A DNA stretch of 20,723 nt from a bacterium (GCA_046757165.1 JBHHXT010000078.1:1-20723); one strand, 5' to 3'; shown: positions 617 through 20,530, numbered from the stretch's first letter. Notes: generated by a model not told the origin, from the sequence alone. A program made the numbers and translations.

Positions 617-1621
617 ATGCATGATCTGAGCAGAATTTTTCTCAGCCTCCTGCCGGTGTTTGCTTTTCTGGCCGGGTTGATCGTTCTGGATAGTTATAAA
701 CTGGTGAAGTTGCGTTCTGTTTTGGCTGTCATCGCACTCGGGCTGCCGGTGGCGTTGTTTTCCATGCTGGTTAACAGTTCCCTGTTGAACGTCGCTTCGA
801 TTGACCTCACCACGTATTCCAGATATGTGGCGCCGGTTGTTGAAGAATTGCTGAAAGCAATCTGCGTCATCTATTTGATAAAAACCAAAAAAGTAGGGTT
901 TCTGGTGGATGCGGCCATCTATGGCTTCGCCATTGGCGCAGGCTTCGCGCTGGTCGAGAATGTTTATTATCTGTCCACCCTGGAGAGCACAAATCTTCAA
1001 CTGTGGGTTATCCGGGGGTTCGGAACCGCGGTCATGCACGGCGGCACCACGGCCCTGTTCGGCATCATTTCCAAGAACCTGGTGGAGCGCAAATCTTCGC
1101 AGGGCATGCAGTATTTCTTGCCCGCCCTGGCCTTTGCAATCCTGACCCATTCGGCCTTCAATCATTTTGTGCTCCCGCCGCTATTGACCACACTCAGCTT
1201 GCTCGTCTTCCTCCCTCTGCTGATCGTCGTCGTGTTTGAGAAGAGTGAAAAAGCCACGCGCAAGTGGCTGGGCGTGGGGTTTGACACCGATATGGAGCTT
1301 CTGGAGATCATCACCCGGGGCAAGATCTCGGAAACCCGAATTGGCCAGTATCTGGAATCGATGAAGAGCAGTTTCCCGGGGGAGGTGGTCGCCGACATGC
1401 TATGCCTCTTGCGCCTCCATCTGGAGTTAGCGATTCGGGCCAAAGGCATCCTGATGATGAAAAGTACCGGTTTCGAGGTCACGCCCGACCCCGAAATCAA
1501 GGAAAAGTTTCAGGAATTGCGCTATTTGGAGAACACCATCGGCAAAACCGGCAAACTGGCGATTCTGCCATTTTTGCACACCTCCGCCCGCGATCTCTGG
1601 CAACTGTACTTTTTAGATTGA
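617..1621 (+). CDS. prsW: PrsW-family intramembrane glutamic protease with a C-terminal soluble extension
   Basis: Multi-pass hydrophobic protein with the PrsW motifs EExxK (VVEELLK), FxxxEN (GAGFALVEN), a conserved H (VMHG) and HxxxN (THSAFN). About 120 aa of hydrophilic tail follows the last TM segment. Confidence 0.88.
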   Translation: MHDLSRIFLSLLPVFAFLAGLIVLDSYKLVKLRSVLAVIALGLPVALFSMLVNSSLLNVASIDLTTYSRYVAPVVEELLKAICVIYLIKTKKVGFLVDAAIYGFAIGAGFALVENVYYLSTLESTNLQLWVIRGFGTAVMHGGTTALFGIISKNLVERKSSQGMQYFLPALAFAILTHSAFNHFVLPPLLTTLSLLVFLPLLIVVVFEKSEKATRKWLGVGFDTDMELLEIITRGKISETRIGQYLESMKSSFPGEVVADMLCLLRLHLELAIRAKGILMMKSTGFEVTPDPEIKEKFQELRYLENTIGKTGKLAILPFLHTSARDLWQLYFLD

Positions 1622-1680
1622 TCGTGAAACAAATATTACGTACTTTTGATTCACCGCACCATATACAAGCCGACATTGTG

Positions 1681-1815
1681 TTTTTTGGGCAAGGTTTGCG
1701 CGACATATTTGGCCACGGATTTACACTGATAAAACACAGATTTCAAGAGACAAGGTATTTGGAACGAATCCGTGGCCCAATGAATTATTTGGTTGCGGCA
1801 GAAGGCCCCTCCCAG
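1681..1815 (-). repeat. Second copy of the head/palindrome/tail element, reverse orientation
   Basis: On the minus strand the head is GCCGCAACCAA (+ strand TTGGTTGCGGC, ~1789-1799) and the tail is AAACCTTGCCCAAAAAA. Perfect 11-bp inverted repeat GGCCACGGATT (1711-1721) / AATCCGTGGCC (1767-1777). Confidence 0.65.
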
Positions 1816-1870
1816 ATTTTCTTTGTTTCCGGCAAGAGAGTATCGAGCCGTGAACCCTGAATGAGTCGCT

Positions 1871-2275
1871 ATGCAAAAGAGATTCAAGAAAGCAATCACC
1901 TCCTTGGACCGAATCTTCGATTTTACCGGGGAGTTTACGCAAAAGCATAAGCTGCCGGAGTCCGTTGTTTTTTCGATCAACTTTGCCATCGAAGAGATTT
2001 TTACCAACATGGTCAAGTATGACCGGCAAACCCCACACGACATTCTCATCGTGCTCGAAAAAACAGCGCACGACGTGACCATTTCCCTGACCGACTTCGA
2101 GGTTGACAGATTCGATGTCACCACAACCGAAGACGTCGATACGACGCAGCCGGTGGCAGAACGAAAAGTCGGGGGTCTGGGTTTGCACCTGGTGAAAAGG
2201 GTCGTTGACGACGTCATCTACGAATACAAAGACAAGAACAGCAAAATCACACTGATTAAATGCTTGGAGAAATAG
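1871..2275 (+). CDS. RsbW/SpoIIAB-like anti-sigma Ser/Thr kinase (HATPase_c_2 fold)
   Basis: N-box AIEEIFTNMVKY and G2-box VGGLGLHLVK, 134 aa, directly upstream of a STAS gene. Confidence 0.85.
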   Translation: MQKRFKKAITSLDRIFDFTGEFTQKHKLPESVVFSINFAIEEIFTNMVKYDRQTPHDILIVLEKTAHDVTISLTDFEVDRFDVTTTEDVDTTQPVAERKVGGLGLHLVKRVVDDVIYEYKDKNSKITLIKCLEK

Positions 2276-2276
2276 C

Positions 2277-2561
2277 ATGTTTGATATTCGCATCAACGAG
2301 GACGGGCGTGTTATGCTGAAAGGGAGACTTGATGCTTCTCAAGCTGACAAGGCGAGAGCCGTGCTCGATACGATCGATAAATCTTGTGTCGTTGATTTCA
2401 AAGAACTGACTTATATCTCCAGTGCCGGGTTGGGGGAATTGCTGGGCTTGCAAAAGCGGCTCATGGACGCGGGAGAGGGGCTGACTCTGGTCAATTTCAA
2501 CGAGCACATCCGGGATATCTTCAGATACGCGGGATTTCATACCATCTTTGAAATGGAATAA
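2277..2561 (+). CDS. STAS-domain anti-sigma-factor antagonist (RsbV/SpoIIAA-like)
   Basis: LKGRLDA...VVDFKELTYISSAGLG motif with the phosphorylatable Ser, and a C-terminal IFRYAGF. Starts 1 nt after the kinase stop. Confidence 0.92.
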   Translation: MFDIRINEDGRVMLKGRLDASQADKARAVLDTIDKSCVVDFKELTYISSAGLGELLGLQKRLMDAGEGLTLVNFNEHIRDIFRYAGFHTIFEME

Positions 2562-2565
2562 TCCG

Positions 2566-2592
2566 CCAACTTTTTGGCGGCTAATTTGTAAT
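2566..2592 (+). promoter_or_regulatory. Putative ECF sigma promoter (autoregulatory)
   Basis: CCAAC-TTTTT-N11-TGTA, i.e. AAC-N16-TGTA. The same motif and spacing occur at 3955-3979, and it resembles the B. subtilis SigW consensus TGAAAC-N16-CGTA. It overlaps a CCGCCAA/TTGGCGG hairpin (2563-2580). Confidence 0.65.
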
Positions 2593-2610
2593 TAGGTCAG
2601 AAGCGCAATC

Positions 2611-3162
2611 ATGACTGAAGTAGATGACTATCTGGAGGTCAAGAAGTGCCTCGACGGGGATAGCAACGCCTTTGAAAATCTCATCGACAAATATCAGAAG
2701 GCCGTTTTCAATGCCGCGTTGCGTATGGTCAGGGACCTGGACGATGCGGAGGACATCACTCAGGCAGTCTTTCTGAAGGCTTACGAAAAGCTGCGGACGT
2801 TCAACCCCAAGTTCAAGTTCTATAGCTGGATCTACAGAATTGCCATCAATGAATCGCTCAATTTCATAGAAAAGCACAAGAACTTTGAGGGTCTGGATGC
2901 GGCAATGACCTCGAAGGAAAAAACACCTGAGGAACACTATGAGGATATTGAATTGAGTGAAAAAATACAGGACGCCCTGATGGGGCTCAATATCCATTAC
3001 AGGGCCGTCATTATTCTGCGACACTTCGAACAGCTATCCTACAAGGAAATGAGCTATGTGCTCGACCTGCCGGAGAAGACCGTGAAGTCAAGATTGTTTA
3101 CAGCTCGGCAGCTTTTGTCAGAAATCTTAATGAACAAAGGTATCGCGGCAAATGCTCGATGA
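2611..3162 (+). CDS. ECF-type RNA polymerase sigma-70 factor (SigW/RpoE-like)
   Basis: Region 2 (DAEDITQAVFLKAY, FYSWIYRIAIN) and region 4 HTH (LSYKEMSYVLDLPEKTVKSRLFTAR), 183 aa. Confidence 0.95.
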   Translation: MTEVDDYLEVKKCLDGDSNAFENLIDKYQKAVFNAALRMVRDLDDAEDITQAVFLKAYEKLRTFNPKFKFYSWIYRIAINESLNFIEKHKNFEGLDAAMTSKEKTPEEHYEDIELSEKIQDALMGLNIHYRAVIILRHFEQLSYKEMSYVLDLPEKTVKSRLFTARQLLSEILMNKGIAANAR

Positions 3163-3922
3163 ACAAATCAAACAGCTCGTCAATCAGGGAATCGACGGGG
3201 ATCTTTCAAAGAAGGAGCGTGCAAAGCTCGAGTCCTATCTTCTGGAAAGTCCGGAGGCGAGAAGCTATCTCAAGATGCTGCAAGAGCTCGACAGAACGCT
3301 GCGGCAGGTAAAAGCAGAGGCACCCCCACGACACCTTAAGAAAGCGATCATGAAATCTATTGGCCATCGCCAAAGGGCCGGAGAAAGAGCCTCGCCCACT
3401 CGGCGGTCGTGGCCGCGCCCGAGAATCAACTGGAGCTACGCGTTCTCCTTTTCGGCGGGAGTGGCAGCGGGAGCGCTTGTGTTCGCACTGCTGGGCACCC
3501 GGCTATCTGAAGGAAAGATGGCCAGGAGCAACCTGACAGGTACGCTGCTGCCGGCGCCGAACGCACAACCATTCGAAACCATCATCGACTTGCCAGAGAT
3601 TGCCGGCAAGGTCGGCTGGACGGCCTCACCAGATGTCGCGGTCGTGGAGCTTGCCTTAGACTCACAGGTCCCGCTTCAGGTGACGCTGGAGTTCGACACC
3701 GAAGTCCTCCTGAGCGCCTTCCGCCACCTGGGACCGGGTGCGGTTCAGGTGGACATCAGCCGGAGGAGCTTGAGCTTCATCCACAGCGGCGAGCAGATTC
3801 ATTCTTTTGCGTTCAAGCGCCACACTCCGTCCGCACCGCGGGTCAACATGAAGATTCTGGCAAACGGCCGTCTGCTCTATGAGAGACTCTTGAACACTGG
3901 CGGCAAGCCCGGGCGACCTTGA
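3152..3922 (+). CDS. Single-pass membrane anti-sigma factor (ZAS-like N-terminal domain lacking the Zn ligands)
   Basis: Overlaps the sigma stop by 11 nt. The N-terminus IDGDLSKKERAKLESYLLESPEAR resembles the zf-HC2/ASD pattern. One TM segment (AFSFSAGVAAGALVFALLG) is followed by a beta-rich extracytoplasmic domain. Confidence 0.8.
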   Translation: MLDEQIKQLVNQGIDGDLSKKERAKLESYLLESPEARSYLKMLQELDRTLRQVKAEAPPRHLKKAIMKSIGHRQRAGERASPTRRSWPRPRINWSYAFSFSAGVAAGALVFALLGTRLSEGKMARSNLTGTLLPAPNAQPFETIIDLPEIAGKVGWTASPDVAVVELALDSQVPLQVTLEFDTEVLLSAFRHLGPGAVQVDISRRSLSFIHSGEQIHSFAFKRHTPSAPRVNMKILANGRLLYERLLNTGGKPGRP

Positions 3923-3954
3923 CCCTCAGCACTTGGTCTGGAGGAAAAACCTGA

Positions 3955-3981
3955 CCAACTTTTTTTCTGCTGGTCTGTATT
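3955..3981 (+). promoter_or_regulatory. Putative ECF sigma promoter for the repeat-protein gene
   Basis: CCAAC (3955-3959) TTTTT-N11-TGTA (3976-3979), with the same spacing as 2566-2590. Confidence 0.65.
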
Positions 3982-4045
3982 TCGAAATAAAGAGAATAAA
4001 TCGAATCTAAAATTTTTGTTTCTAACCATCTTGAGGAGGTCCATT

Positions 4046-4987
4046 ATGAGTCAGCCTTCTAAATCATTGTTTGGCAGCGGCAAGAATCGGGTTCTCCTGG
4101 CCGCCGTCGTGTTAGCCGTCGTTGTGGTGGGGTATTTCGCCTATACCGGCTTTCCTCCCTCGACTGAGGATGTCAGCGGGACTATCGGCGGCGTCAAAAA
4201 AGCAGAGAAGTACCAGGTCGAGCAGATGACTGCCGATGCTGTGCTGTTGGAAAACCCAGAGCTGCAAACCTTGCTGCAAAGCGACAAATTTCAGAGTTTA
4301 TTGCAGGACGAGGGGTTTCAAAAGCTGATCGCCAACGCGCGCTTTCATGAATTGATGGCCGATGCGAAATTTCAAGAGCTGATCGCCAGCGCCAGGTTTC
4401 AAGAAATGATGGCGGATGCCCGCTTCCAGGAGCTGATGGCTGACGCTCGTTTTCAAGAGCTGCTGGCTCAGGCCCAATTCAGGGAGCTGGTTGCCAGGGC
4501 GACGTTCCGGGAGTTGTTGGCCCAGGCCCGGTTCCGGGAGCTGGTCGCGACCGCGCAGTTTCAAGAGCTGGTTGCCGATGCCCGCTTTCAGGAGCTGGTT
4601 GCGGAAGCCAGGTTCGACGAACTCAGAGCAGAGGCATCCTACAGCGAGCTGATGGCTGATGCACGTTTCGTTGAACTCATGGCCACAGCCCAATTCCAGG
4701 AGCTGATCGCCGACGCACGGTTCGTCGAGCTTCTTGCCAATGCCCGGTTTGCTGAGCTGATGGCGAACGCGAGATTTCACGAGCTGATGGCGAACGCCCG
4801 CTTCATGGAGCTGGTCGCCACAGCACGATTTCAAGAGCTGATTGCCAACGCCAGTTTCGTCGAGCTCCTCGCCAGCGCCAGGTTTCAGGAACTGATGGCG
4901 ACCGCCACCTTTCAGGAGCTGATCGCCAGCGCCAGATTCCAGGAGCTGATGGCCAACCTTCAAACCACAGCTCTGATGGCACGCTGA
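4046..4987 (+). CDS. Uncharacterised N-terminally membrane-anchored or exported protein with 25 tandem 9-aa repeats (313 aa)
   Basis: Strong RBS GAGGAGG before ATG 4046, preferred over the TTG at 4016. Basic N-terminus and hydrophobic VLLAAVVLAVVVVGYFAY, a linker, then FxELxAxAR repeats to the C-terminus. Confidence 0.9.
   Translation: MSQPSKSLFGSGKNRVLLAAVVLAVVVVGYFAYTGFPPSTEDVSGTIGGVKKAEKYQVEQMTADAVLLENPELQTLLQSDKFQSLLQDEGFQKLIANARFHELMADAKFQELIASARFQEMMADARFQELMADARFQELLAQAQFRELVARATFRELLAQARFRELVATAQFQELVADARFQELVAEARFDELRAEASYSELMADARFVELMATAQFQELIADARFVELLANARFAELMANARFHELMANARFMELVATARFQELIANASFVELLASARFQELMATATFQELIASARFQELMANLQTTALMAR
4289..4963 (+). repeat. Coding tandem repeat, 25 x 27 nt
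   Basis: Units run from FQSLLQDEG (4289) to FQELMANLQ (4937-4963) with no indels. Synonymous codons vary between units. Confidence 0.95.
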
Positions 4988-5035
4988 GGCGTGCCGGTTC
5001 GCGCACCACATCCGCGAACTGAACCTGAGCGAAAT

Positions 5036-5077
5036 AGAGGAGATTCTGACCCCAGGGCTGGAATCTCCTCTCCTTTT
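5036..5077 (+). terminator. Probable intrinsic terminator after the repeat gene
   Basis: AGAGGAGATTC (5036-5046) / GAATCTCCTCT (5061-5071) perfect 11-bp stem, followed by CCTTTT. Confidence 0.65.
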
Positions 5078-5125
5078 GATCTAGCAAGCGTCCTGGAGTT
5101 TTGTAGTGCGACGGCCCGGCCATCA

Positions 5126-5245
5126 CAGGCCGATAGGCTGTAGACTTTTAGTCTGTAGGAAGATGAGAAGAGCTGCGGTTTCGGCGTTTTGATTAGAGCA
5201 TTGCGCAAAACCTAACAGCCTAATAGCCTACAGTCTAAACGCCTG
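5126..5245. repeat. Imperfect inverted repeat built from 7-8-nt units (TAGGCTG-like / CAGCCTA-like)
   Basis: Left arm CAGGCCGATAGGCTGTAGACTTTTAGTCTGTAGG (5126-5159). Right arm CCTAACAGCCTAATAGCCTACAGTCTAAACGCCTG (5211-5245). Confidence 0.75.
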
Positions 5246-5271
5246 AATAGGCCTATCTTCGGAGGAGGGAC

Positions 5272-8244
5272 ATGCAAAGAAATACGATTCAGCGCTGCTG
5301 TTTTTTTTGTGGGTTGATTCTTCTTCACCTCACTTCGCCGCTTTCAGGACAAATCGAAAAACTGACATCCGATAGGCTGAAATTGCTCTACCTGGGCAAG
5401 GCACAAGAATACCTCGTTCCCCATCTCGCACGGTGTTTTGAAAATGCGCTCGAGTTTCATCGCCAGACGTTCAATTATGAGCCCAGTGAGGAGGTGACCG
5501 TTCTTCTGCAGGATTTCGGTGACTTTGGCAACGGCGGGGCCACCGCAGTGCCAAACAACCTGATCTCCATCGGCATGGCGCCCTTTAGCTATGCCTACGA
5601 AACCATTCCAGCCAACGAGCGCATGAACTGGATGATGAACCACGAGCTGGTCCACATTCTCGCCAGCGACAAGGCCGCCCCCTCCGACCGTTTCTTTCGC
5701 AAGATTTTTTTTGGCAAGGTCATGGCCGTGCCGGAAGACCCCGTGTCCATGCTGTATGCCTATCTGACCAATCCGCGTCTCTACTCGCCGCGCTGGTACC
5801 ACGAGGGCATCGCAGTGTTCATGGAAACCTGGATGGCGGGTGGACTGGGCCGCGCCCTGGGGGCCTATGACGAAATGGTCTTTCGCACCCTGGTGCGCGA
5901 GAATGGCTATTTCTACGATGTGGTCGGCCTGGAGTCAGAAGGGACCAAAGTGGATTTTCAGGTGGGCGCCAACTCTTACCTGTACGGCACACGGTTCATG
6001 ACTTACCTGGCCTACCACTATAGTCCGGAAAAGCTCGTTCAATGGATTTCCCGCGCAGACAACAGCAAAGCCTATTTTTCATCGCAGTTCAAGAAAGTCT
6101 ATGGCGTCTCCCTCAACACGGAATGGGCAAATTGGCACAAATGGGAGCAAACCTGGCAACGCGCCAATCTCGACTCGATCCGCAAGTTTCCGACGACCGC
6201 CTATCGCGTCGTGTCGAACCAGACTCTGGGGTCTGTTTCGCGTTCCTATTTCGACGCCGACAATCACAAACTCTACACCGCCATCCGCTACCCCGGGCAG
6301 GTGGCGCACATCGCGGCCATCGACGTGGAGAGCGGTGAGCTGGAAAAAATATGCGAGATCAAAGGCGCGGCGCTGTTTTACGTCACCTCCCTGGCCTATG
6401 ATCCGGAGTCGGCGACTCTCTTCTACACCACGGATAACAACGGCTGGCGTGACCTCAATGCCGTGGTTTTGACCACGGGCAAAAAGCAACGGCTCATCAA
6501 AGACGCCCGCACGGGCGACCTCGCTTTCAACCGCGCGGACAAATCTCTGTGGGGCGTGCGCCACTACAACGGCATCTCGACCCTGGTGCGGATTCCAGCC
6601 CCGTATGAAGAATGGAATCAGATTCACTCCTTTCCGTATGGCCAGGATATCTATGACCTCGATGTGGCGCCGGATGGCTCCGCGGTCACCGCGGCTCTGA
6701 TCGAGGTCACCGGCAAGCAAAAGCTGATCAAGATGAATATCGAAAAGTTGATGACCAACGGCAGTACGGCCCCGCCCTATGAGGTGATTTTCGATTTCGA
6801 GAACAGCTCGCCAGCGGATTTTGTTTTTTCTGCTGACGGCCGCTACCTGTTTGGGTCGTCGTACTATTCGGGTGTGTCAAACATCTACCGCTACGACTTC
6901 GAGCTGGACGACATGTCGATTCTGAGCAATTGTGAAACCGGTTTCTTCAGGCCGGTGGTGGTGTCGCCGGACTCCCTGGTGGTCATGCGGTATTCCGCCA
7001 GCGGCTTCCAGCCGGTGATGATCGCTCACGAGACCGTTGACAATGTCAATGCCATCAGGTTCGCCGGTAATGAAGTGGCAAAAAAACATCCGGTCGTGCA
7101 GAGCTGGCGGCTCGGCACACCGGCCCGGATCAACCTGGATTCACTGGGCACCTCGAGGGGGAAGCACAGGACCTTCGCGGACATCCGTCTGGCCACCGTC
7201 TATCCGGTGGTGCAGGGGTATAAAGATTTCGCCGCTGTCGGGCTGAAGTTCAATTTCGCTGACCGGTTGGGGTTCAGCGGCTTCGAGCTTGCGGCGACCT
7301 ATTCTCCGGACCGGGATTTGCCTTCCGATGAACGTGCCCATGTGAAATTCAATTTTCACCACTGGAATTTGAGCCTCAGCGGCACGTACAACGGCGCCGA
7401 TTTCTACGACCTTTTTGGCCCAACAAAAACGAGTCGAAAGGGGTACTCGCTGGGCTTGCATCATAAGAGCACGCTGCTCTATGATGAGCCGAAGACCCTG
7501 CACTGGGATTTCGACATCACCGGCTATGGTGGCCTGGAAAGGCTGCCAGACTTTCAGAATGTCTCCACGACCTTCGAGGAGCTGCTCACCGCGCGAACCG
7601 GCCTGCTCTACTCCTTTACGCGCAAATCTCTTGGTGCGGTGGACGATGAAAAAGGTGTGGTCTGGGAGCTGGTCAGCCACAACACCTACGTGAATAAAAC
7701 CTTTGTTCCGCGGGTGTTCACCAACTTTGCTTACGGGGTTTTGCTGCCGCTCGACCACTCCTCTCTCTGGTTGAGAACGTCAGCCGGACATGCGTTTGGA
7801 GACCGGGACGATCCCTTTGCGAATTTCTTTTTCGGGGGCTTCGGAAACAACTGGGTGGACTATTTGAACGAAAAGCGCTACCGGGAGCATGACAGTTTCC
7901 CGGGTCTGGAGATCAATGAACTCGGTGGCAAGACCTACGTCAAGGCCATGCTCGAGTGGAACTTGCCCCCGTTGCGTTTCCGCCGTGTTGGCTTTCCGGC
8001 CTTTTATGTCAACTGGGCGCGGCTGGCCCTGTTTTCATCTGCCGTTGCAGGCGTGAGCCGGGATTTCAAAGTTGCGGACCGGACCACCTTCTTCAACCTC
8101 GGCGGACAACTCGATTTCAGCCTGGTTTTGTTTTCCAACATGCACTCGACCCTTTCGATCGGCTATGCGGTTGCGGTTGAGGAAAACCAGTCCCCTGACC
8201 AGGCCGCCGGCGAATTCATGGTCTCGCTGAAAATTCTGCAATAA
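5272..8244 (+). CDS. Exported 990-aa protein: gluzincin (clan MA) metallopeptidase-like domain, TolB/WD40-like beta-propeller, and putative outer-membrane beta-barrel (Omp85-like)
   Basis: RBS GGAGGAGG and a signal-peptide-like N-terminus. HELVH at 5641-5655, followed by WYHEGIAVFME as third zinc ligand. Propeller-type repeats (LAYDPES, LDVAPDGS, FVFSADGRYLF). The C-terminal ~350 aa have alternating aromatic/hydrophobic strands. Confidence 0.72.
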   Translation: MQRNTIQRCCFFCGLILLHLTSPLSGQIEKLTSDRLKLLYLGKAQEYLVPHLARCFENALEFHRQTFNYEPSEEVTVLLQDFGDFGNGGATAVPNNLISIGMAPFSYAYETIPANERMNWMMNHELVHILASDKAAPSDRFFRKIFFGKVMAVPEDPVSMLYAYLTNPRLYSPRWYHEGIAVFMETWMAGGLGRALGAYDEMVFRTLVRENGYFYDVVGLESEGTKVDFQVGANSYLYGTRFMTYLAYHYSPEKLVQWISRADNSKAYFSSQFKKVYGVSLNTEWANWHKWEQTWQRANLDSIRKFPTTAYRVVSNQTLGSVSRSYFDADNHKLYTAIRYPGQVAHIAAIDVESGELEKICEIKGAALFYVTSLAYDPESATLFYTTDNNGWRDLNAVVLTTGKKQRLIKDARTGDLAFNRADKSLWGVRHYNGISTLVRIPAPYEEWNQIHSFPYGQDIYDLDVAPDGSAVTAALIEVTGKQKLIKMNIEKLMTNGSTAPPYEVIFDFENSSPADFVFSADGRYLFGSSYYSGVSNIYRYDFELDDMSILSNCETGFFRPVVVSPDSLVVMRYSASGFQPVMIAHETVDNVNAIRFAGNEVAKKHPVVQSWRLGTPARINLDSLGTSRGKHRTFADIRLATVYPVVQGYKDFAAVGLKFNFADRLGFSGFELAATYSPDRDLPSDERAHVKFNFHHWNLSLSGTYNGADFYDLFGPTKTSRKGYSLGLHHKSTLLYDEPKTLHWDFDITGYGGLERLPDFQNVSTTFEELLTARTGLLYSFTRKSLGAVDDEKGVVWELVSHNTYVNKTFVPRVFTNFAYGVLLPLDHSSLWLRTSAGHAFGDRDDPFANFFFGGFGNNWVDYLNEKRYREHDSFPGLEINELGGKTYVKAMLEWNLPPLRFRRVGFPAFYVNWARLALFSSAVAGVSRDFKVADRTTFFNLGGQLDFSLVLFSNMHSTLSIGYAVAVEENQSPDQAAGEFMVSLKILQ

Positions 8245-8425: not shown

Positions 8426-9187
8426 ATGTTAAAAGACGGTAAAGTGATGATCGAAGCAAAAGGATTGAGCAAGTACTATGGCCCTTTTGTGGCGATAAAG
8501 GACATTACTTTTTCCATCCCGGAGGGCAACATCGTCGCCTTTCTCGGCCCCAATGGTGCGGGCAAGTCGACGACCATGAAGATTCTGACTGGCTACCTGG
8601 CGCCAAGTGAGGGGTCTGCTGCCATCGCCGGTCTGGACATTCGAAGCGACCGGATCGAGGCGTGTAAGAAGCTTGGTTATTTGCCTGAGAACGGGCCTTT
8701 GTACCAGAACATGACACCGCTCGAGCTGCTGAACTTCTTTGGCGAGGCCCGCGGGATTGAACCGAAAAAGCTCGAGAGACGAATTGATGCAATCGTCGAA
8801 CAATGCGCCCTGCAGCTTGTGCTGGAAAAGCCCATCGACAAACTCTCGCGCGGCTACAAACAACGCGTGGGGCTGGCCCAGGCCCTGTTGCACGACCCTG
8901 CCGTCCTGATCATGGATGAGCCCACTGCCGGTCTGGACCCGAACCAGATTCGCGAATTTCGCACAAACATCAAGAAGTTAGGCAAAAAGAAGACCATCAT
9001 GATCTCGACGCACATCCTGCAGGAGGTGGACGCTATCGCCGACTACGTCCTGTTCGTCACTGACGGTAAGTTGGTTTTCACCGGTACGCCGGGTGAGCTG
9101 AAGGAAAATGGCTCGCTCGAGGACCCCTTCTACAAACTGACCAATCAGGGCAAGCCGGTGACAGCAAAAAAGGAGGTCTCGGCATGA
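8426..9187 (+). CDS. ABC transporter ATP-binding protein (GldA-like, ABC-2 type)
   Basis: Walker A GPNGAGKST, signature LSRGYKQR, Walker B LIMDEP, H-loop STH. Confidence 0.95.
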   Translation: MLKDGKVMIEAKGLSKYYGPFVAIKDITFSIPEGNIVAFLGPNGAGKSTTMKILTGYLAPSEGSAAIAGLDIRSDRIEACKKLGYLPENGPLYQNMTPLELLNFFGEARGIEPKKLERRIDAIVEQCALQLVLEKPIDKLSRGYKQRVGLAQALLHDPAVLIMDEPTAGLDPNQIREFRTNIKKLGKKKTIMISTHILQEVDAIADYVLFVTDGKLVFTGTPGELKENGSLEDPFYKLTNQGKPVTAKKEVSA

Positions 9188-11874
9188 ACATCAAGCTACA
9201 AAACATAGAGGTGACCATCAACTGGAAGGTGGTGCAGGCCATCGTCAAGCGCGACCTGCGCATCTATTTTTCCAACCCCACCGGTTACGTCTTCATCACG
9301 CTTTTTATCTTTCTGAGCGCTGCTGCAGCCTTCTGGCAGGAGCGCTTTTTTATGAACAACCTGGCCAATCTCGACCAGCTCAACCAGATGTTCCCGCTCT
9401 TGCTGCTGTTTTTTGTGCCCGCTCTGACCATGGGCGTCTGGGCCGATGAGCACAAGCAGGGCACTGACGAGCTTCTCTTGACCTTGCCCGCCTCCGACCT
9501 GGAAGTGGTGCTGGGCAAGTATCTGGCGACACTGGGCATTTACACCGCTTCCCTGATTTTGTCTCTCAGTCACATTCTGGTTTTGATGTGGCTCGGCAGC
9601 CCGGATCTCGGGCTGATGTTGGGCAATTACATGGGCTACTGGTTTCTTGGCGCCGCTTTGATCGCCGTGGGCATGCTGGCCTCTTTGCTCACATCAAACA
9701 TCACCATTGCCTTTATTCTGGGCGCCATCTTTTGTAGCTTTTTTATGCTTGTCAATGTGTTTGGCCAGGTCATCAGCCAGGCGGTTCAGGATCTGATTTC
9801 ATCAATCGGCGTGGTCGTCCATTTTCGCGATTTTGCCCGCGGCGTGGTGAGTTTCTCAGGCGTCCTTTATTTCCTTTCGGTCACGGGCGTGATGCTCTAT
9901 ATCAATGTGCTTCTCATCGGCCGGCGCCACTGGCCTCTGGAAGCAGATGGCTACAGGATGTGGGTGCATCATCTCGTGCGCTCTGTCGCCATCGTGATTG
10001 CGCTCATCAGCGTGAATGTCATGCTGGTTCGCGCCAGCATGCGTCTGGACGTGACGGCCGAGCAACTGCACTCGCTCTCCGATGAGACCGAGGACTTGCT
10101 CGACGAATTTCCTGAGGACCGGCCCGTGTTCATCGAGGCGTTCATCAGCAAAGAGGTGCCGCAACAGTATGTGCAGACGCGCTCGAATCTGCTTGGCTTC
10201 CTGCAAGAGATGGACGTCGTCGGTGGCAGCAAGGTGCAGCTCATCATCCGTGATACCGAGCCGTACACAAAAGAAGCCCAGGACGCGCGCGAAAGATTCG
10301 GCATCACCCCGCAGGAGATTCCGGACCTGGGTAGCGCACGCGCGGCCACGATTCCAACGTTTCTGGGCGTGGCCTTTAAGTGCGGGGCCGAGGAGCAAGT
10401 GATTCCGTTTTTCGACCGCGGTTTGCCGGTCGAGTATGAGCTGGCGCGCAGCATCCGCGTGGTCGCCAGAACCGACCGCAAGAAAATTGGCGTGCTCACC
10501 ACGGAGGCGAAGCTTTTCGGCGGCTTCGACTTTCAGTCCTTCCGCAGCACCCCGCCCTGGCCTGTGGTCGATGAACTGAAGAAGCAGTACGAGGTGGTTC
10601 AAGTTTCAGCCACCAGCCCGATCGAAGAGGAGCTGGATGGCTTGCTGGTGGCGCTGCCGTCTGCGCTGCCACAGGAGGAAATGGACAACCTGAAAGCGTA
10701 CATTCTGGCCGGCACGCCGACTTTGCTTTTGCTCGATCCATTGCCGATAACCAATATTGGGCTGGCGCCGTCCGAAAAGTCCGGCTCGAACGTCAACCCA
10801 TTCATGCGCAACCAGGGCCCGCCACCGAAACCAAAGGGCAACATTCATGGATTCCTGGCCGACCTGGGCGTGAGCTGGAACAAGGCACAGATCGTCTGGG
10901 ACATGTACAATCCTCACCCCGAGTTCGCACAGTTGCAACCGGAAATCGTTTTTGTTGGCAAAAGCAGCAACGCAGAGGCGTTCAACCCCGAGCACCGCGG
11001 CAGTGCGCAGCTCCAGGAGCTGGTGTTCCTTTTCCCGGGCTTCCTGAAAAAGTCCGCCAGCGCCAATTTCACCTTCACGCCCCTGATCAAGACGGGCGAG
11101 CAATCCGGCTCTCTGAATTATTCGCAGCTGGTGCAGCGCAGCTTCTTCGGCACCCAACTCGTCAGCCCGCGCTTCGGCCGGCGGCCCAACAGTCTCGACT
11201 ACACGGTCGCGGCACATGTGCAGCGGGAGATAACCCCGGAAGATTCTACCGAAACGCCCAGGAAGGTCAATCTGATCGCCATCGCCGATCTGGATTTTAT
11301 TTCACAGGACTTTTTTGAAATCCGCAAGCGCGCGGTCGGAAATTTGAACTTCGATAATGTGTCATTTTTTCTCAACTGCATGGATGTCCTGGTCGGTGAT
11401 GAATCGTTCATCGCCCTGAGAAACAAGCGTGTGAAACACAGAACCCTCACACAGGTCGAGGAACAAACACGCAAGTTCATCGAGCAGCGCAACCAGGAGG
11501 AACAAGAAGCGGAAGCGGAAGCGTCGCGAGCCCTGGCAGAGGCGCAGCAACGGTTGAACGAGCGCGTCAATGAAGTTCGCCAGCGCACCGACCTCGACCA
11601 GCGCACCAAAGACATCATGGCCAACAACCTGCAGGCCGTTGAACAAAAGAGGTTTGACGCCATGAAAGCAAGCATCGAGGCACAAAAGGAAGCGAAAATC
11701 AACTCCAGCAAAGAGAACATGGAAGCGAAGATTCGCAGCATTCAAGGAAACATCAAGATCTTTGCTGTTATTCTGCCTCCGATCCCGGTCTTTGTATTCG
11801 GTGTTTTGGTTTTCATCCAACGGCAGAAGCGGGAAAGAGAGGGGGCGCTGGCGGCAAGGAGATTGCGAAGTTGA
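9184..11874 (+). CDS. Fused ABC-2 permease (GldF-like) and GldG-family periplasmic auxiliary component
   Basis: ATGA overlap with the ATPase gene. N-terminal multi-TM region with YFSNPTGY and EHKQGTDELLLTLP. Then RLDVTAEQLHSLSDET, IADLDFIS and NCMDVL GldG-type motifs, a coiled coil and a C-terminal TM. Confidence 0.88.
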   Translation: MNIKLQNIEVTINWKVVQAIVKRDLRIYFSNPTGYVFITLFIFLSAAAAFWQERFFMNNLANLDQLNQMFPLLLLFFVPALTMGVWADEHKQGTDELLLTLPASDLEVVLGKYLATLGIYTASLILSLSHILVLMWLGSPDLGLMLGNYMGYWFLGAALIAVGMLASLLTSNITIAFILGAIFCSFFMLVNVFGQVISQAVQDLISSIGVVVHFRDFARGVVSFSGVLYFLSVTGVMLYINVLLIGRRHWPLEADGYRMWVHHLVRSVAIVIALISVNVMLVRASMRLDVTAEQLHSLSDETEDLLDEFPEDRPVFIEAFISKEVPQQYVQTRSNLLGFLQEMDVVGGSKVQLIIRDTEPYTKEAQDARERFGITPQEIPDLGSARAATIPTFLGVAFKCGAEEQVIPFFDRGLPVEYELARSIRVVARTDRKKIGVLTTEAKLFGGFDFQSFRSTPPWPVVDELKKQYEVVQVSATSPIEEELDGLLVALPSALPQEEMDNLKAYILAGTPTLLLLDPLPITNIGLAPSEKSGSNVNPFMRNQGPPPKPKGNIHGFLADLGVSWNKAQIVWDMYNPHPEFAQLQPEIVFVGKSSNAEAFNPEHRGSAQLQELVFLFPGFLKKSASANFTFTPLIKTGEQSGSLNYSQLVQRSFFGTQLVSPRFGRRPNSLDYTVAAHVQREITPEDSTETPRKVNLIAIADLDFISQDFFEIRKRAVGNLNFDNVSFFLNCMDVLVGDESFIALRNKRVKHRTLTQVEEQTRKFIEQRNQEEQEAEAEASRALAEAQQRLNERVNEVRQRTDLDQRTKDIMANNLQAVEQKRFDAMKASIEAQKEAKINSSKENMEAKIRSIQGNIKIFAVILPPIPVFVFGVLVFIQRQKREREGALAARRLRS

Positions 11875-11897
11875 GCGGCATCCTAATGCAGCAAAGC

Positions 11898-12050
11898 TGC
11901 AAATGAATGGAACGCGGATTTGACGGATAGGACGGATTGACACGGATCTGATTTTGGGTGAACACCAAAAAATTCATGAGCCACATGATCCCTATTCCAC
12001 TGACTTCGACACATCCGTTAAATCCGTCTTATCCGTGTTCCATTTTTTGC
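11898..12050. repeat. Palindromic CGGAT/ATCCG element between the GldFG and DUF4340 genes
   Basis: Left arm AATGGAACGCGGATTTGACGGATAGGACGGATTGACACGGAT. Right arm ATCCGTTAAATCCGTCTTATCCGTGTTCCATT (12013-12044). Shares 23 of 24 nt with 330-353 in inverted orientation. Confidence 0.85.
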
Positions 12051-12112
12051 CCTTTGTTGCAAAAGATCGGAGGTAATAACATAGAGATGAACAGGATAAC
12101 CAGGAGAACAAG

Positions 12113-13489
12113 ATGAACGAACTGAAGAAAACCATCATCTTCGGCGGTGGCGCCGTCGTGCTCGCCTTGCTGGCGTTTGTCACCGCGCCAAGCAGGGTGA
12201 CACCGGATGCCTTTCTGGATAAAGACGAACCGTTCTTCCCGGAATTCACTGATCCCAACATTGCCACCACTCTTGAAGTCATCGATTTCGATGCGGAAAC
12301 CGGCGAGGCCAAGCCATTCAAGGTGACGTTCAAAGCGGGGAGATGGACCATCCCGTCGCACCATGATTATCCGGCTGACGGCAAGGAGCGGCTGGCAAAA
12401 ACCGCAGCCAGCATCATCAGTTTCAAGAAAAACGAATTTCGCTCCGACAATGTCGCCGACCACCAGGCGCTCGGGGTGATCGATCCACTGGACGAGAGCA
12501 ACGCCTCCCTCGAGGGGCGCGGCCAGCGCGTGACGATCAAAGGACAAAATGACCAGATCCTCGCCGACTTGATCATCAGCAAAGAGGAGATCGAAGGGAA
12601 AGAAAAATTTCGTTTTGTCCGCCTCCCGGACCAGAAACGAGTCTATGCTGCCCGCACCGATATCGATATCTCAACCAAATTCAGCGACTGGATTGAAGCG
12701 GATCTGCTGAAAGTCGAGAAAGACAGGATAAAGGAGGTCACCATCCGGGACTACTCCATCAATGAGCGCACCGGCAGCCTGCGGAACCGGGACACCGTTG
12801 TTTTGACCCGGGACGGAAGCGATTGGTCGATGAAAAAACTCCCTTCCGATAAGGAGATTAACACGACCAAGATCAATGACCTGGTGCGGGCGCTGGATGA
12901 ATTGTCCATCGTGGGTGTGCGGCCAAAGCCGCAGGGGCTTTCGCTCTCCTTACGGAAAATGGAAAGCGAGGACATGAAACTCACGCACGAAGCCATGCTT
13001 TCCTTGCAGTCAAAAGGGTATTACTTTACCCGCGACGGCCAGCTCGTATCCAACGAGGGTGAGATTCAAGCGCATACCAAAGACGGTGTCATCTACACGC
13101 TCCGCTTTGGCGAAGTGGTTTACGGTTCAGGGCTGGCGGTGACGGCCGGGACCGAATCCGAAGAAGGCGAGGAAAAAGGATCAGGCGAAAACCGCTACCT
13201 GTTTATCAGCACTCGCTTCGATGACGGCGAGTTCCGGGAGCCGCCGAAACCACCGAATACCGACTTTGCCACCAAGCCCGACAGCTTGTGGACCGACGCA
13301 GACAGAGAGAACAAAGAGAAGCAACGAAAATGGGATGAATGGAAGCTCAAAATGGACACCGGACAGGAGCTTTCTGACAACCTCAACGAGCGCTTCGCAG
13401 GATGGTACTACGTCATTTCCTCCAGCAGTTTTGACAAGCTGCATTTGAAACGCAAGGATCTGCTCGAGGACAAAAAGAATGATACATGA
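12113..13489 (+). CDS. DUF4340-like membrane-anchored protein of Gld-type ABC operons
   Basis: RBS CAGGAG and an N-terminal TM. Motifs WTIPSHHDYPAD, FVRLPDQKRVY and WYYVISSSSFDKL. Typical third gene of GldA/F/G modules. Confidence 0.75.
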   Translation: MNELKKTIIFGGGAVVLALLAFVTAPSRVTPDAFLDKDEPFFPEFTDPNIATTLEVIDFDAETGEAKPFKVTFKAGRWTIPSHHDYPADGKERLAKTAASIISFKKNEFRSDNVADHQALGVIDPLDESNASLEGRGQRVTIKGQNDQILADLIISKEEIEGKEKFRFVRLPDQKRVYAARTDIDISTKFSDWIEADLLKVEKDRIKEVTIRDYSINERTGSLRNRDTVVLTRDGSDWSMKKLPSDKEINTTKINDLVRALDELSIVGVRPKPQGLSLSLRKMESEDMKLTHEAMLSLQSKGYYFTRDGQLVSNEGEIQAHTKDGVIYTLRFGEVVYGSGLAVTAGTESEEGEEKGSGENRYLFISTRFDDGEFREPPKPPNTDFATKPDSLWTDADRENKEKQRKWDEWKLKMDTGQELSDNLNERFAGWYYVISSSSFDKLHLKRKDLLEDKKNDT

Positions 13490-13695: not shown

Positions 13696-14274
13696 ATGAA
13701 AGTTAAAGAAACGACCTCAACCTACCTGACACGGAAACGTCCTTTCACCTACCAGGACTATCTGAAGCTACCCGAAGATGATTTCCGCTATCAAGTCATA
13801 AACGGGGGGCTCGTTATGACGCCATCCCCCATCACAGCTCACCAAAGGGTATGCGAGCGCATTGGCTATGAACTCAGCAAGTATGTTGAAAGGACAAAGA
13901 CCGGTGAAGTTTTGCGCGCTCCCATGGATGTCGTCTTGAGTAAAGAGAACGTTTACCAACCGGACATTCTGTTCATTTCGAATGACAATAGCCAGATCGC
14001 TCGAGAAAACAACATCGACGGGGCGCCGGATTTGGTGATCGAGGTGCTTTCGCCAGCGACCAGCACCTATGATTTGATCTCCAAGAAGGAGAACTACCAG
14101 AAATACGGCGTCGAGGAGTACTGGATCGTCGACCCGAAACAGGAGTGGATCGAAGTCTACTGCAATGACCACGGCGAGTTCAAGCTCGAATCTCGCCTCG
14201 AAAAGGAAGGGACCGTCAAGTCAAGGCTGTTGAAGGGGTTTCAAGTAGACATGGTCCACGTGTTCAGGCGCTGA
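13696..14274 (+). CDS. Uma2 (DUF820) family putative restriction endonuclease
   Basis: TYQDYLKLP, PSPITAHQ, QPDILF, GAPDLVIEVLSP and YGVEEYWIVDP motifs. Confidence 0.93.
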   Translation: MKVKETTSTYLTRKRPFTYQDYLKLPEDDFRYQVINGGLVMTPSPITAHQRVCERIGYELSKYVERTKTGEVLRAPMDVVLSKENVYQPDILFISNDNSQIARENNIDGAPDLVIEVLSPATSTYDLISKKENYQKYGVEEYWIVDPKQEWIEVYCNDHGEFKLESRLEKEGTVKSRLLKGFQVDMVHVFRR

Positions 14275-17400: not shown

Positions 17401-17683
17401 CCATTTTCTGCTCAACCGGAAAGTCACGCATCTTTTGCCGGAAGATTTCATCCATCTTCGCCTGCTCGACGTGCGCTTTCACGCCCTGCAGAAACATCTC
17501 GTTGGCTTTTGCAAGCTCGAGCTTTTCTGTGATTTCCTTGTTTGCGGCGACCTTGCCAAAGGACAATGCGCCATCCTTGCCAGCACCGAACGCCTGACTC
17601 AACGCCACAGCCAGAAACAAAAAGCCAGCCAACAGCAGGTATGCTGACTTTCTGAACGCTCCATCCTTAACTTTGTTTGTCAT
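14444..17683 (-). CDS. Secreted protein with 7 carboxypeptidase-regulatory-like beta-sandwich repeats and a C-terminal FlgD-Ig/T9SS-type-A-like sorting domain
   Basis: RBS AGGAGG and a signal peptide. Seven units begin GxIxGxV and end (G/D/N)IDFxL. C-terminus LSQNYPNPFNPSTVINY...WDGHNEKGEQVAAGIYF...RKMLLVK. Confidence 0.88.
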   Translation of the reverse strand: MTNKVKDGAFRKSAYLLLAGFLFLAVALSQAFGAGKDGALSFGKVAANKEITEKLELAKANEMFLQGVKAHVEQAKMDEIFRQKMRDFPVEQKMAAYVKAIDNAMAQGVDLAELTRRLKSQRDLLQSTSAVGSIAGTVTIEGAAPTGFVEVVAFTVHGFPAGHAMVDAAGNYSIVDLPAADYRVLTHSRYVDEFFDDVPLNGFRNWRDATLVTVPEGGEAGGIDFDLLQGATVSGHIFQADGTTPIGSQNVHFAIFRVDPFGLPREVDTVTDADGAYTFNLPTTGMFKIAALVAGFLPEFFDNKPDFESADVVDIPTLDTELTNIDFSLEAAPDAPQGAAIAGTVTGPSGPLFLSFVFAFNVADTTIQGLGVSDVFGEYIVEGLDAGDYVVYADNFTSFLSPDAPGVRGEYFDDAPTSDLATPVTAVDLDTIPDIDFELDTAGGISGTITDDAGTALDSVLVIAVRVDAENLGKFFFDAIDFGVAFSDASGTYTITGLSPGPYILRTVSLLTALLSGDVPLEEMVIDEYYDNVQSIFDLDQATPVEVTVPETHEGIDFVLDRAGAISGRFVEATDGVTPIVGTGLVFAFNVETGLPEIAFPVFDSTTGEYVVAPLPSGTFVLLGLVVPADTLNPQDLVLYLPQFYDGAATPEEATPVLVTAPVVTPDIDFNMVRAGSIEGFVNIAPGFPVGADSLSTTFVVAYEATSGAVAGGAETTFSGGFKIFGLPPGSYKVAALPVAPAFSVTYHGGGTTFDAANSTPVAVTAGAATVADINLATALGVIRGMVTNLDGSVPLNGVLVLAYDGTGHVVSAGLSGFPVLPPGQLAATTLSAGSASQPGEYFIPGLGTGTYYVRTFSLFQIFLLLEQLDLAGDLGGDPLALLFGLLDSGDDLLGQLNIELFADLYYPDQIVVPDLAEFDLFSFLFRLLLGGGDPASFIPFADNIPSGAGEVTVTSPGIADGIDFHLPRLLDVISDVETPDGGMTLPTAFQLSQNYPNPFNPSTVINYDVAGTGPVSLQVYNMLGQRIRTLFDGVRQAGSYSILWDGHNEKGEQVAAGIYFVRMKSDNLVFTRKMLLVK

Positions 17684-19657: not shown

Positions 19658-20530
19658 TTACGCCCCAAAATCCAAAGGACTTTGGGCTTCTTTAATGGTT
19701 GTGCTTTTTACCGTGTGCGTATAGATCATCGTGGTTTTGATATCACCATGACCCAAAAGCTCCTGGATGGTTCGAATATCATAGTTGGCTTGCAGGAGAT
19801 GACTGGCAAAACTGTGTCGAAACGTGTGGGCGGTGGCGGGCTTGGTTATCCGGGCCTTATAAACCGCCTTCCTGATCGCCTTTTGGACATGAGTCGGGTG
19901 CAGATGGTAGCGTTTTCGTTCATCGGTTTCGGGGACGAGTGTCAATGCTTTCGCCGGAAAGAGCCATTGCCAGATAAATTCTTTTGCGGCACTCGCGGAT
20001 TTTTTCTCGAACGCGCCAAACATGAACGTGCCATGATAATCTGCTTGCAGATCTTTCTGATGCAAATTATGCACGCGACGAATTTGGTCTTTTAGCTCAT
20101 CCAAAATGGCGTATGGAATCGGCACGGTTCTGTCTTTTTGTCCTTTGCCGTCATGCAAATCAGCAAGGAGCTGGTCCCAGGCGGCCTGTTGCGGGGTCAA
20201 AACCCGCGAAGATTGCTCTGGCAGTTCCTGGTTTCGAACAGCCGCCGGTGTGGGTGAGTCATGCGCAGCATCATGCTCGGGAAAAGCATAATACAAATTG
20301 ATGGCATGACCAGCCTCTTTTTGCTGCCGCACATTTTGACCTTTCTCATGCAGCTTTTTGATAAACAGCGGCAACGAAGCGCGCCGGTTGGGAGCATGGT
20401 GGTATTTGTTGCAAAAATCAAGATAGAAGCGCAGCCATTTCAAGTAGGTGTTGTGGCTGTGTCGCGGGACCTCACGCTGCGTCAACAGGCGGGTATATTC
20501 GTTTTTCAACTGCGCCGGTATCTCGAGCAT
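19658..20530 (-). pseudogene. intI: Integron integrase with a large in-frame internal deletion
   Basis: Contains [12 protein letters not shown], the IntI-specific insertion ([20 protein letters not shown]...RYHLH) and box [14 protein letters not shown]...[10 protein letters not shown]...TTMIYTH. The N-terminal SAM-like domain ([12 protein letters not shown]) is present, but box I (YGxGLRxxE) is absent. Start taken at ATG 20530 (MLEIPAQ). Confidence 0.85.

Follow-up and report, generated by a model that had tools for sequence, protein, structure and literature searches.

A conserved seven-gene cluster with a PrsW protease, an ECF sigma factor, and a WD40-like Omp85 protein: a candidate proteolytic signalling circuit of double-membrane bacteria

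A stretch of bacterial DNA 20,723 nt in length (GCA_046757165.1 JBHHXT010000078.1:1-20723; hereafter the window, in which coordinates are given) carries between positions 617 and 8244 seven open reading frames (ORFs) on the plus strand. They encode a PrsW-family protease, an RsbW-like kinase, a STAS protein, a sigma factor of the extracytoplasmic function (ECF) type, an anti-sigma factor, a membrane-anchored repeat protein, and a 990-residue outer-membrane protein (here, the barrel protein). Sequence comparison indicates that the seven genes are one conserved unit in many groups of uncultured double-membrane bacteria. We lean, with a little better than even confidence, toward the view that the unit is a self-contained proteolytic signalling circuit across the double-membrane envelope, like cell-surface signalling but with a WD40-Omp85 peptidase and PrsW. 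An earlier, first-pass annotation of the same DNA had proposed one envelope system in which the sigma factor induces the repeat protein and the barrel protein processes or exports it, giving a surface filament or signal peptides. The single system, the path from sigma factor to repeat gene, and the partnership of repeat and barrel proteins have held up, but not the filament or peptide mechanism. That annotation recognized no characterised system in the set, and no published description was found in a literature searched by listings and abstracts, with subscription journals mostly outside coverage; every part comes from a known family, and the literature so covered suggests that the combination is undescribed.

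Families were assigned to the ORFs with Pfam and NCBIfam, and all seven co-oriented genes lie where the first-pass annotation had placed them, with the families it had named. The first (617-1621) encodes the PrsW-family intramembrane protease of 334 amino acids (PF13367, E=5e-23 over residues 33-204). It is followed by genes for an RsbW/SpoIIAB-like kinase of 134 amino acids (1871-2275; PF13581 HATPase_c_2, E=8e-17), a STAS anti-anti-sigma-like protein of 94 (2277-2561; PF13466 STAS_2, E=1e-10, with TIGR00377 just under cut-off), an ECF sigma factor of 183 (2611-3162; Sigma70_r2 and r4_2, the best NCBIfam match being SigW with E=6e-38, below cut-off), and a single-pass anti-sigma factor of 256 (3152-3922; NF052375, E=6e-12, below cut-off). 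The repeat protein (4046-4987; 313 amino acids) is taken to start with the ATG at 4046, which a GAGGAGG site precedes, and not with the TTG further upstream, at 4016, that the ORF finder chose. The barrel protein (5272-8244) consists of a signal peptide, HEXXH domain, propeller, linker, and barrel (Omp85_2, E=3e-4, below cut-off). The usual gene order in relatives is RsbW, STAS, sigma, anti-sigma, repeat, barrel, PrsW, with the PrsW gene mostly directly 3' of the barrel gene; in the window it stands at the front.

The genes travel together whether one starts from the barrel gene, from PrsW, or from whole genomes, which bears out the single system first supposed. When species genomes were scanned, 159 relatives of the barrel protein turned up; the 78 loci retained are all from metagenome-assembled genomes (MAGs) or single-amplified genomes, and many have short flanks. 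They span KSB1, Calditrichota, Bacteroidota/Ignavibacteria, Gemmatimonadota, Acidobacteriota/Aminicenantes, Gamma- and Alphaproteobacteria, Zixibacteria, Marinimicrobia, Cloacimonadota, and Delongbacteria. Over all 78, BLAST found PrsW in 70, the repeat gene in 49, STAS and sigma in 47 each, RsbW in 46, and the anti-sigma gene in 37. Among loci with sufficient flank, a gene with the leader of the repeat protein (its conserved N-terminal part) lies directly upstream of the barrel gene in 49 of 50, and PrsW occurs in 67 of 71; 23 of the 31 well-flanked loci have all seven functions, and 35 of the 40 with at least 6 kb upstream have the RsbW-like kinase. The reverse search, in metagenomes, was anchored on PrsW because the repeat-protein alignment is too variable for metagenome scanning, and 80 loci of 458 were kept. 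Of these, 34 have 5 kb or more upstream; the barrel gene and the repeat leader were each found in 33 of them (and both together in 33), STAS in 31, anti-sigma and sigma in 30 each, and RsbW in 27. Finally, among 151 whole genomes of the same phylum, a strong leader match is found in 39 and a barrel protein with 45% identity or more in 40, the two occurring together in 38; PrsW is present in 38 of the 39 strong-leader genomes, and six genomes with only a distant barrel (29-33% identity) have no leader match. (Two of the genomes counted here, G144 and G087, are unpublished, and G087 is the sole leader genome without a barrel match.) By the same counts, RsbW and STAS are real members of the unit, less tightly linked than the other genes. 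A search of 72,556 plasmid records gave one weak partial match.

The sigma and repeat genes share a promoter pattern, CCAAC-TTTT...TGTA with a fixed spacer. The window has two such sites on the plus strand: P1, upstream of the sigma gene (2565-2593), which reads CCAAC-TTTTT, a 10-nt spacer, and TTGTAATT (matrix score 29.2), and P2, upstream of the repeat gene (3954-3982; matrix score 31.3). The matrix was built from 20 repeat-gene sites of other genomes, with an identical spacer in all 20. Scores of at least 15 occur upstream of 41 of 44 sigma genes, as against 1 of 31 anti-sigma genes and 0 of 363 control stretches, and none was found upstream of 70 PrsW, 45 RsbW, 46 STAS, and 68 barrel genes. 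In the independent set anchored on PrsW, 44 of the 45 sites scoring at least 19 precede a sigma gene (28) or a repeat gene (16). The two window sites are the top scorers in the 6.09-Mb genome, P2 being the best, and four sites in that genome score at least 24, versus none in a shuffled 3-Mb strand. Because the promoter is common to both genes, the sigma factor very probably drives the repeat gene, as the first-pass annotation had held; P2 probably covers the barrel gene too. The promoter once thought to link all the parts thus links the sigma and repeat genes but not those for PrsW, RsbW, STAS, and the barrel protein. In Bacillus, SigW and SigV promoters have the form AAC-n-TTTT ... GTA with a T-tract, in the same register as here (from the available part of PMC5758882). 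That unrelated genes came together by chance is next to impossible: the window order does differ from the usual one, with PrsW first, and the next genes, for an ABC transporter, are truly unrelated, but the counts of co-occurrence and promoters already refute the idea.

In 35 of 40 loci, the sigma start codon lies 3-4 nt past the A of GTA; the window ATG lies 17 nt further. By the numbering in the available part of PMC5758882, which places the T-tract at -29 to -26, the sigma ATG would fall at about -7, upstream of the expected start of transcription; the window ATG would be included. It appears about an even matter whether the sigma-driven transcript skips the sigma start, so that the inhibitor alone is made, or the geometry is unusual and the gene leaderless. 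The -35 part of P1 sits within a GC-rich hairpin (2563-2580), which is not significant alone, since 14 terminator-like sites were counted against 10.2 by chance. Other high-scoring sites are one divergent from the sigma gene (L012:7175, minus strand) and one before genes for a response regulator and PrsW (L116, in genome G035); a further promoter site lies about 290 nt upstream of a gene that by eye is TonB-dependent-receptor-like (G000:C22:11048, minus strand).

PrsW proteases are marked by the catalytic motifs EExxK, FxxxE, H, and HxxxN/D within membrane helices. The motifs EExxK, FxxxE, HG, and HxxxN are conserved in the window protein and 70 homologues (PF13367, 82 bits versus a cut-off of 23.5), as is a C-terminal extension of about 120 residues past the PrsW domain. 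The host genome also encodes an RseP homologue (over cut-off). The sigma factor is not a SigW orthologue by the curated cut-offs (NF007223, 130.5 bits with a cut-off of 209; TIGR02948, 116.8 with a cut-off of 243.1). An ECF sigma factor, a co-encoded single-pass anti-sigma factor, and an autoregulatory-type promoter, features of the SigW/RsiW/PrsW pathway, are all found here. The anti-sigma factor has an N-terminal helical domain, a membrane helix at about residues 97-115, G-T-L at 130-132 (3539-3547), and an outside domain that reads by eye as apparently beta-rich; it matches no Pfam family at E<=0.1 and so receives no FecR-type assignment, and in an alignment of 27 anti-sigma ORFs, GT is the sole conserved outside motif. 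In the RsbW-like kinase, the N-box and GGLG are conserved but not the glycine that follows the G1-box aspartate. The phospho-acceptor-type motif YISSAG of STAS is found in 37 of 47 homologues, with variants in 9. A gene for a PP2C phosphatase with a GAF or other sensor domain adjoins in 18 of 31 well-flanked loci and is absent from the window; 17 PP2C-like genes lie elsewhere in the host genome. The available part of the ECF classification supplement (PMC7826278) holds no group joining PrsW, STAS, and Omp85.

The repeat protein begins with an uncleaved helix (about residues 17-34) and a conserved segment (45-74; 4178-4267). The leader runs, in order, from a membrane helix through an aromatic/proline stretch and G-T-I-G to a second motif, K/R-Y..EQ..D-V-x-L; G45, T46, Q60, and L68 are nearly invariant in an alignment of 36 rows. 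From residue 69 (4250-4978) follow 27 nine-residue units with the consensus xARFQELMA, F at position 4 in 24 of them and L or M at position 7 in all 27; in the DNA, this appears as 23.7 copies of a 27-nt unit (4316-4954), and the 25 units of the first-pass annotation are right within counting convention. Conservation ends after about 75 residues, and the tail varies freely. In 52 tails (9 further ORFs were excluded because the motif locator failed on them), the period is 9 in 23, 12 in 7, 10 in 4, 18 in 2, 8 in 2, 13 in 1, 6 in 1, and absent in 12; net charge runs from -35 to +47 and length from 108 to 667 residues, hydrophobicity differs, and some tails are hydrophilic. The window tail is modelled as an array of 7-residue helices (predicted local distance difference test, pLDDT, about 80 over residues 68-306; predicted template modelling score, pTM, 0.59). 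Set against solved folds, the model had no Foldseek match at E<=0.001 and a best Z of 4.4, which does not show a new fold. PF17830 STI1-HOP_DP matches the tail just under its cut-off (E=8e-6; 26.1 bits versus 29.1), the first Atlas match (0.93) carries UBQLN1 on 33% and STI1 on 25% of its members, and most tails have amphipathic short helices.

In 29 loci the anti-sigma and repeat genes are separate, but in 18 the repeat protein carries the N-domain of the anti-sigma factor as an in-frame fusion, and a stand-alone anti-sigma gene was not found. The repeat protein is then the outside part of the anti-sigma factor, which points to a role in signalling; the sequences indicate that it can be the signal-receiving part. 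On a FastTree tree of 61 barrel proteins (14 from fused loci, 29 from separate, 18 unlabelled), the fusion state changes 6 times, compared with a mean of 12 after shuffling; the tree cannot distinguish gain from loss of the fusion. The CAAC-T...GTA pattern lies upstream of 21 of 27 non-fused repeat genes and of none of 15 fused ones, and an internal promoter inside the fused genes was also sought, with 0 of 15 showing one. A ribosome site (at least 5 matching bases) with an ATG precedes the helix in 10 of 15 fused genes, versus 1.8% of 2015 internal methionines of neighbouring genes, a comparison that favours the fused set, since the best of up to four methionines was taken there. The fused genes thus probably make two proteins. 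One fusion (P0179) comes from a Luteibacter MAG, and cultured Xanthomonadales might offer a tractable host.

What the anti-sigma factor and the repeat protein have in common is only the helix and the G-T-(I/L/M) after it (G-T-L at 130-132 of the one, G-T-I-G at 45-48 of the other), a juxtamembrane motif that the first-pass annotation had rightly picked out. G[TAS][LIMV] follows a membrane helix in 26 of 33 non-fused ORFs after the sigma gene, some of which were wrongly picked. The modules can also be seen apart. Genomes G103 and G035 have PrsW with sigma and anti-sigma genes and no repeat or barrel match. G054, which has no barrel match, has PrsW directly before a gene that joins the leader to a kinase. 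Loci L038, L064, and L069 have PrsW, repeat, and barrel genes and no sigma gene in the flank, and G002 has a second, stand-alone pair of repeat and barrel genes. From these cases we conclude, on the strength of gene content, that PrsW tracks the G-T motif and the barrel protein tracks the second leader motif. Genomes G119 and G122, where the query found PrsW and no anti-sigma gene, count against this.

The idea that the leader sits on many different passengers was tried and dropped: a profile search gave 25 proteins, the 6 that were read had repeat, low-complexity, or non-repeating helical tails or were anti-sigma fusions, and the kinase fusion is rare. One such fusion (G000:C23:18924-19847, minus strand; L079) has a promoter site scoring 25.8, fourth in the host genome of the window, and a membrane helix with D-I-S-G-T-I-G on a PI3/4-kinase-like domain; the other (G054:C74; L112) also has the leader on a PI3/4-kinase-like domain and a promoter-like site, which makes 2 of the 151 genomes. 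A metallophosphatase gene lies 3' of the leader-kinase gene in both G000 and G054, and G000 also has a STAS gene and another kinase-like gene there. In L064 (7494-9616) the barrel gene is preceded by three leader-bearing genes in tandem, and in L074 (1-1822) by two, all with tails that are not repetitive. In the window, the 285-nt gap between repeat and barrel genes holds short imperfect repeats at 5148-5260, of the type CCTAACAG, with periods of 8 and 15.

The barrel protein was modelled with AlphaFold2 from a 61-row alignment (pLDDT 90, pTM 0.89) as a helical HEXXH domain, a six-blade propeller (residues 307-590), a linker, and a 16-strand barrel of the Omp85 type (639-987). HEXXH is encoded at 5641-5655, and H124, E125, H128, and E178 are invariant in 61 of 61 aligned homologues. 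The peptidase motif, propeller, and barrel named in the first-pass annotation are borne out. The propeller resembles TolB (Z 22.6, root-mean-square deviation 2.9 over 240 aligned residues; the best Foldseek match is TolB, E 3e-9; VIA-align Z 22-24) and the barrel resembles BamA of Deinococcus (8xnb; Z 19.1, root-mean-square deviation 4.3, 294 aligned). Peptidase_MA_2 matches two homologues, P0005 and P0020, below cut-off. The fold lists for the whole protein hold no peptidase row, being filled by propellers, and Atlas structure neighbours (template modelling score 0.78-0.83) fall in clusters with PD40 and partly Omp85 and Peptidase_MA_2. A sequence search of solved structures gave nothing for the barrel protein alone and two propeller matches only for the alignment. 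Across phyla, barrel proteins of this clade share 44-65% identity; the clade is large, with 6698 of the 7999 candidates scored at E<=1e-100, the named ones being called hypothetical or "WD40 repeat".

The Omp85 insertases BamA and TamA have POTRA domains and an RG(F/Y) motif in loop 6, and Omp85 topology places N-terminal domains in the periplasm. In the barrel protein, neither Pfam nor the model reveals a POTRA domain; in loop 6, FGG and SFPG occur together with a conserved insert, and there is no RG(F/Y); the barrel keeps a long lid-like loop. Two distant barrel proteins, P0030 and P0033, have N-terminal extensions of about 250 residues, and the weak match of the latter to the AMIN domain is a pointer to periplasmic N-terminal domains. 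The host has a paralogue (G000:C11:30370-33399, minus strand; L081; 21% identity over 647 residues) with PD40 repeats, Peptidase_MA_2, and HEXXH. In P0025, PrsW and the barrel protein share one reading frame of 1365 aa, perhaps through a genuine fusion or else through loss of a stop codon.

A complex of barrel-protein residues 27-990 with repeat-protein residues 43-78 was modelled. The docking score was 0.72 against 0.00 for the best control, runs shared at least 92% of contacts, and partner pLDDT was at least 74; the score mark was reached by 116 of 157 solved pairs and 2 of 215 mismatched pairs, a rough calibration in which own alignments were used. The conserved segment (residues 45-74) is predicted to lie over the propeller (455-550), the linker (590-618), and the outside of the peptidase (46-54, 115-119, 189-198), so that the modelling check proposed with the first-pass annotation favours docking on the peptidase/propeller face. 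The zinc ligands H124, E125, H128, and E178 are not among the confident contacts, and no comparable solved complex was found by sequence. Strict adjacency of the genes and the complex model support the view that repeat and barrel proteins are partners.

How might such a circuit operate? By the known logic of these families, the ECF sigma factor would be held by the single-pass anti-sigma factor. Once free, it would transcribe the repeat gene and probably also the barrel gene, together with PrsW where the genes stand in their usual order. The repeat protein would sit in the inner membrane with segment 45-74 docked on the periplasmic face of peptidase and propeller. PrsW may make the site-1 cut in proteins with a helix and G-T-(I/L/M), i.e., the anti-sigma factor, the repeat protein, and their fusions, and RseP would finish the job, freeing the sigma factor. 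The grip of the barrel protein on the segment could then govern cutting, making the barrel an outer sensor or gate; the available part of a study of FoxA and FoxR (PMC11637429) gives a precedent for a barrel that shields an anti-sigma factor from cutting. Where anti-sigma and repeat proteins are separate, the induced repeat protein may act in trans as an adaptor or competing substrate, damping the response, and its tail would be a loosely constrained spacer or bait. RsbW, STAS, and PP2C would form an added cytoplasmic input, with the PrsW extension perhaps as target. The fusions are the strongest argument for signalling, because in them the repeat protein is the sole outside part of the anti-sigma factor.

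Several observations weigh against this circuit. Counts take in related genomes and hence are not independent, 4 of the 34 loci anchored on PrsW have no sigma gene in the flank, and G119 and G122 have PrsW with a GAF-type gene adjoining instead of an anti-sigma gene (by the query used). RsbW and STAS are tied to the sigma factor by position alone. G-T-(I/L/M), being short, could serve in dimerisation or docking and not as a site for the protease, and G45 and I47 indeed fall within the predicted interface. The barrel residues of that interface have no extra conservation (0.65 versus 0.64 elsewhere), and distant barrel proteins without a leader partner keep them at about the overall rate. Also, the docking segment starts about 10 residues from the inner-membrane helix and may be unable to reach an outer-membrane protein unless first released.

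Release is the starting point of an unlikely alternative, in which PrsW cuts after the helix and G-T-I-G, and the next segment targets the repeat protein to the barrel for sorting to the surface, maybe as a helical filament or coat. It would account for the strict pairing of repeat and barrel proteins (including the stand-alone pair in G002), for a constant N-terminus before a free C-terminus, for the predicted docking, and for the three tandem leader genes in L064; leader and promoter are found on the kinase-like passenger as well, and PrsW has been proposed as a toxin-release peptidase (PMC3482391, in the part available). However, the kinase passenger lacks the second motif and occurs in only 2 of 151 genomes, one of which, G054, is without a barrel match; POTRA domains are missing from the barrel, which keeps its lid-like loop; short hydrophilic tail units are unlikely to build one kind of filament; and the anti-sigma fusions argue for signalling. 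The curli-like filament of the first-pass annotation finds no support as the leading mechanism, given the varied period, charge, and hydrophobicity of the tails, their helical model, and fusions to the anti-sigma factor in 18 loci. The same variability and fusions count against its other proposal, signal peptides cut from the repeats. It is quite improbable that the tail is a substrate of the HEXXH peptidase whose 9-residue products signal to the circuit or the outside: the zinc-ligand motif is invariant, residues 115-119 near the start of the HEXXH helix are in the interface, and in the WD40-like Omp85 subfamily the N-domains are aminopeptidase-like (PMC4104836, Table S3, as far as available), but the units have no fixed sequence or cleavage motif, though the peptidase is so well conserved across phyla, 12 of the 52 tails have no clear period, and the four zinc ligands lie outside the confident contacts.

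One might instead think of biogenesis in the manner of TamA and TamB, the helical repeat protein passing hydrophobic cargo to an Omp85 insertase with a quality-control peptidase, merely induced by sigma and PrsW. The Omp85-type barrel, the STI1/ubiquilin-like features of the tail (below cut-off), and the amphipathic helices would fit, but the docking segment lies beside the membrane anchor and not at the far end, the tails have unrelated periods, very different lengths, and in some cases a hydrophilic character, the clear matches include no solved STI1 fold, and the anti-sigma fusions go unexplained; we consider it rather improbable. A last possibility, to which we give a minority share of belief while preferring the signalling circuit, couples export to gene control. 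Helix and G-T-I-G would be a portable PrsW release signal and the next 25 residues an address for the WD40-Omp85 barrel; a fused anti-sigma factor would be cargo, by which the sigma factor reads the state of export; two in-frame starts would give inhibitor and cargo; and the sigma promoter may start past the sigma ATG, giving negative autoregulation.

The proposed circuit has relatives in several known systems. In Bacillus subtilis, PrsW cleaves RsiW (PMC3482391, available part), and the cluster shares with SigW/RsiW/PrsW/RasP the ECF sigma factor, single-pass anti-sigma factor, intact PrsW, site-2 protease in the genome, and promoter register. It differs in its double-membrane hosts, in a dedicated, neighbouring PrsW whose C-terminal extension is conserved, in a tiny regulon (sigma and repeat gene; -35 CCAAC, -10 TGTA), and in the added outer-membrane partner, repeat protein, and partner switch. 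The FecA/FecR/FecI and FoxA/FoxR/FoxI systems likewise have a barrel whose periplasmic part binds an inner-membrane partner, as is predicted here. The available part of PMC11637429 describes a sigma factor that induces the barrel and also anti-sigma proteolysis, both of which we infer for the cluster. However, the cluster's barrel, 16-stranded and of the Omp85 type, comes with a peptidase and a propeller and is no TonB-dependent transporter (no TonB-receptor family of Pfam or NCBIfam matches it); there is no FecR domain, PrsW stands in place of Prc, and the docking segment is on a separate, sigma-induced repeat protein. The text available for PMC7593790 does not mention PrsW.

The layout of the barrel protein is that of the "WD40-like" Omp85 subfamily of Heinz and Lithgow (2014; PMC4104836), described in the available part as an aminopeptidase-like domain, a TolB-like propeller, and a BamA/TamA-like barrel; the 16 strands and TolB-like propeller are found here too. 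That part of the survey gives no function, partner, or gene context, whereas the cluster's clade is tied to the repeat protein and PrsW, unlike the distant barrels (29-33%) and the host PD40 paralogue (21%). With the RsbW/RsbV/RsbU switch of SigB and SigF, the cluster shares the HATPase_c_2 kinase, the STAS serine motif, and an often adjoining GAF-SpoIIE phosphatase, but its neighbouring sigma factor is an ECF one with its own membrane anti-sigma factor, and the window lacks the phosphatase. Curli, with CsgA and CsgG, combine a repeat subunit bearing an N-terminal targeting segment with an adjoining gene for an outer-membrane channel, and the cluster too has a repeat protein with a conserved N-terminal segment beside an outer-membrane barrel gene. 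In contrast to curli, its repeats are helical and not beta-amyloid, its anchor is uncleaved, and its barrel is monomeric, with 16 strands and a peptidase. No Csg family of Pfam or NCBIfam was found among the window proteins, nor such a conserved neighbour family in the loci.

For a clade of WD40-like Omp85 proteins, the analysis supplies a promoter and two candidates, a partner whose docking segment spans 30 residues and a protease motif. If the circuit is real, signalling may cross the envelope without TonB-dependent receptors or DegS, and double-membrane bacteria would have a PrsW substrate motif.

The remainder of the window holds further genes. The co-oriented genes for a GldA/GldF/GldG-like ABC transporter and DUF4340 (8426-13489) were considered as members and rejected: the ABC ATPase has matches in 2 of 78 loci at 27-29% and the others in none. 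Beyond them, Pfam identifies a Uma2 endonuclease (13696-14274) and, on the minus strand, a CarboxypepD_reg repeat protein of 1079 amino acids with a FlgD/T9SS-type tail (14444-17683), a GWxTD protein (17889-19223), and a tyrosine recombinase with a SAM_4 domain (19658-20638), whose catalytic-domain match begins at profile position 51. At the other end, a short ORF (1-264), without a Pfam match at 1e-5, looks by eye like a truncated PIN-domain protein.

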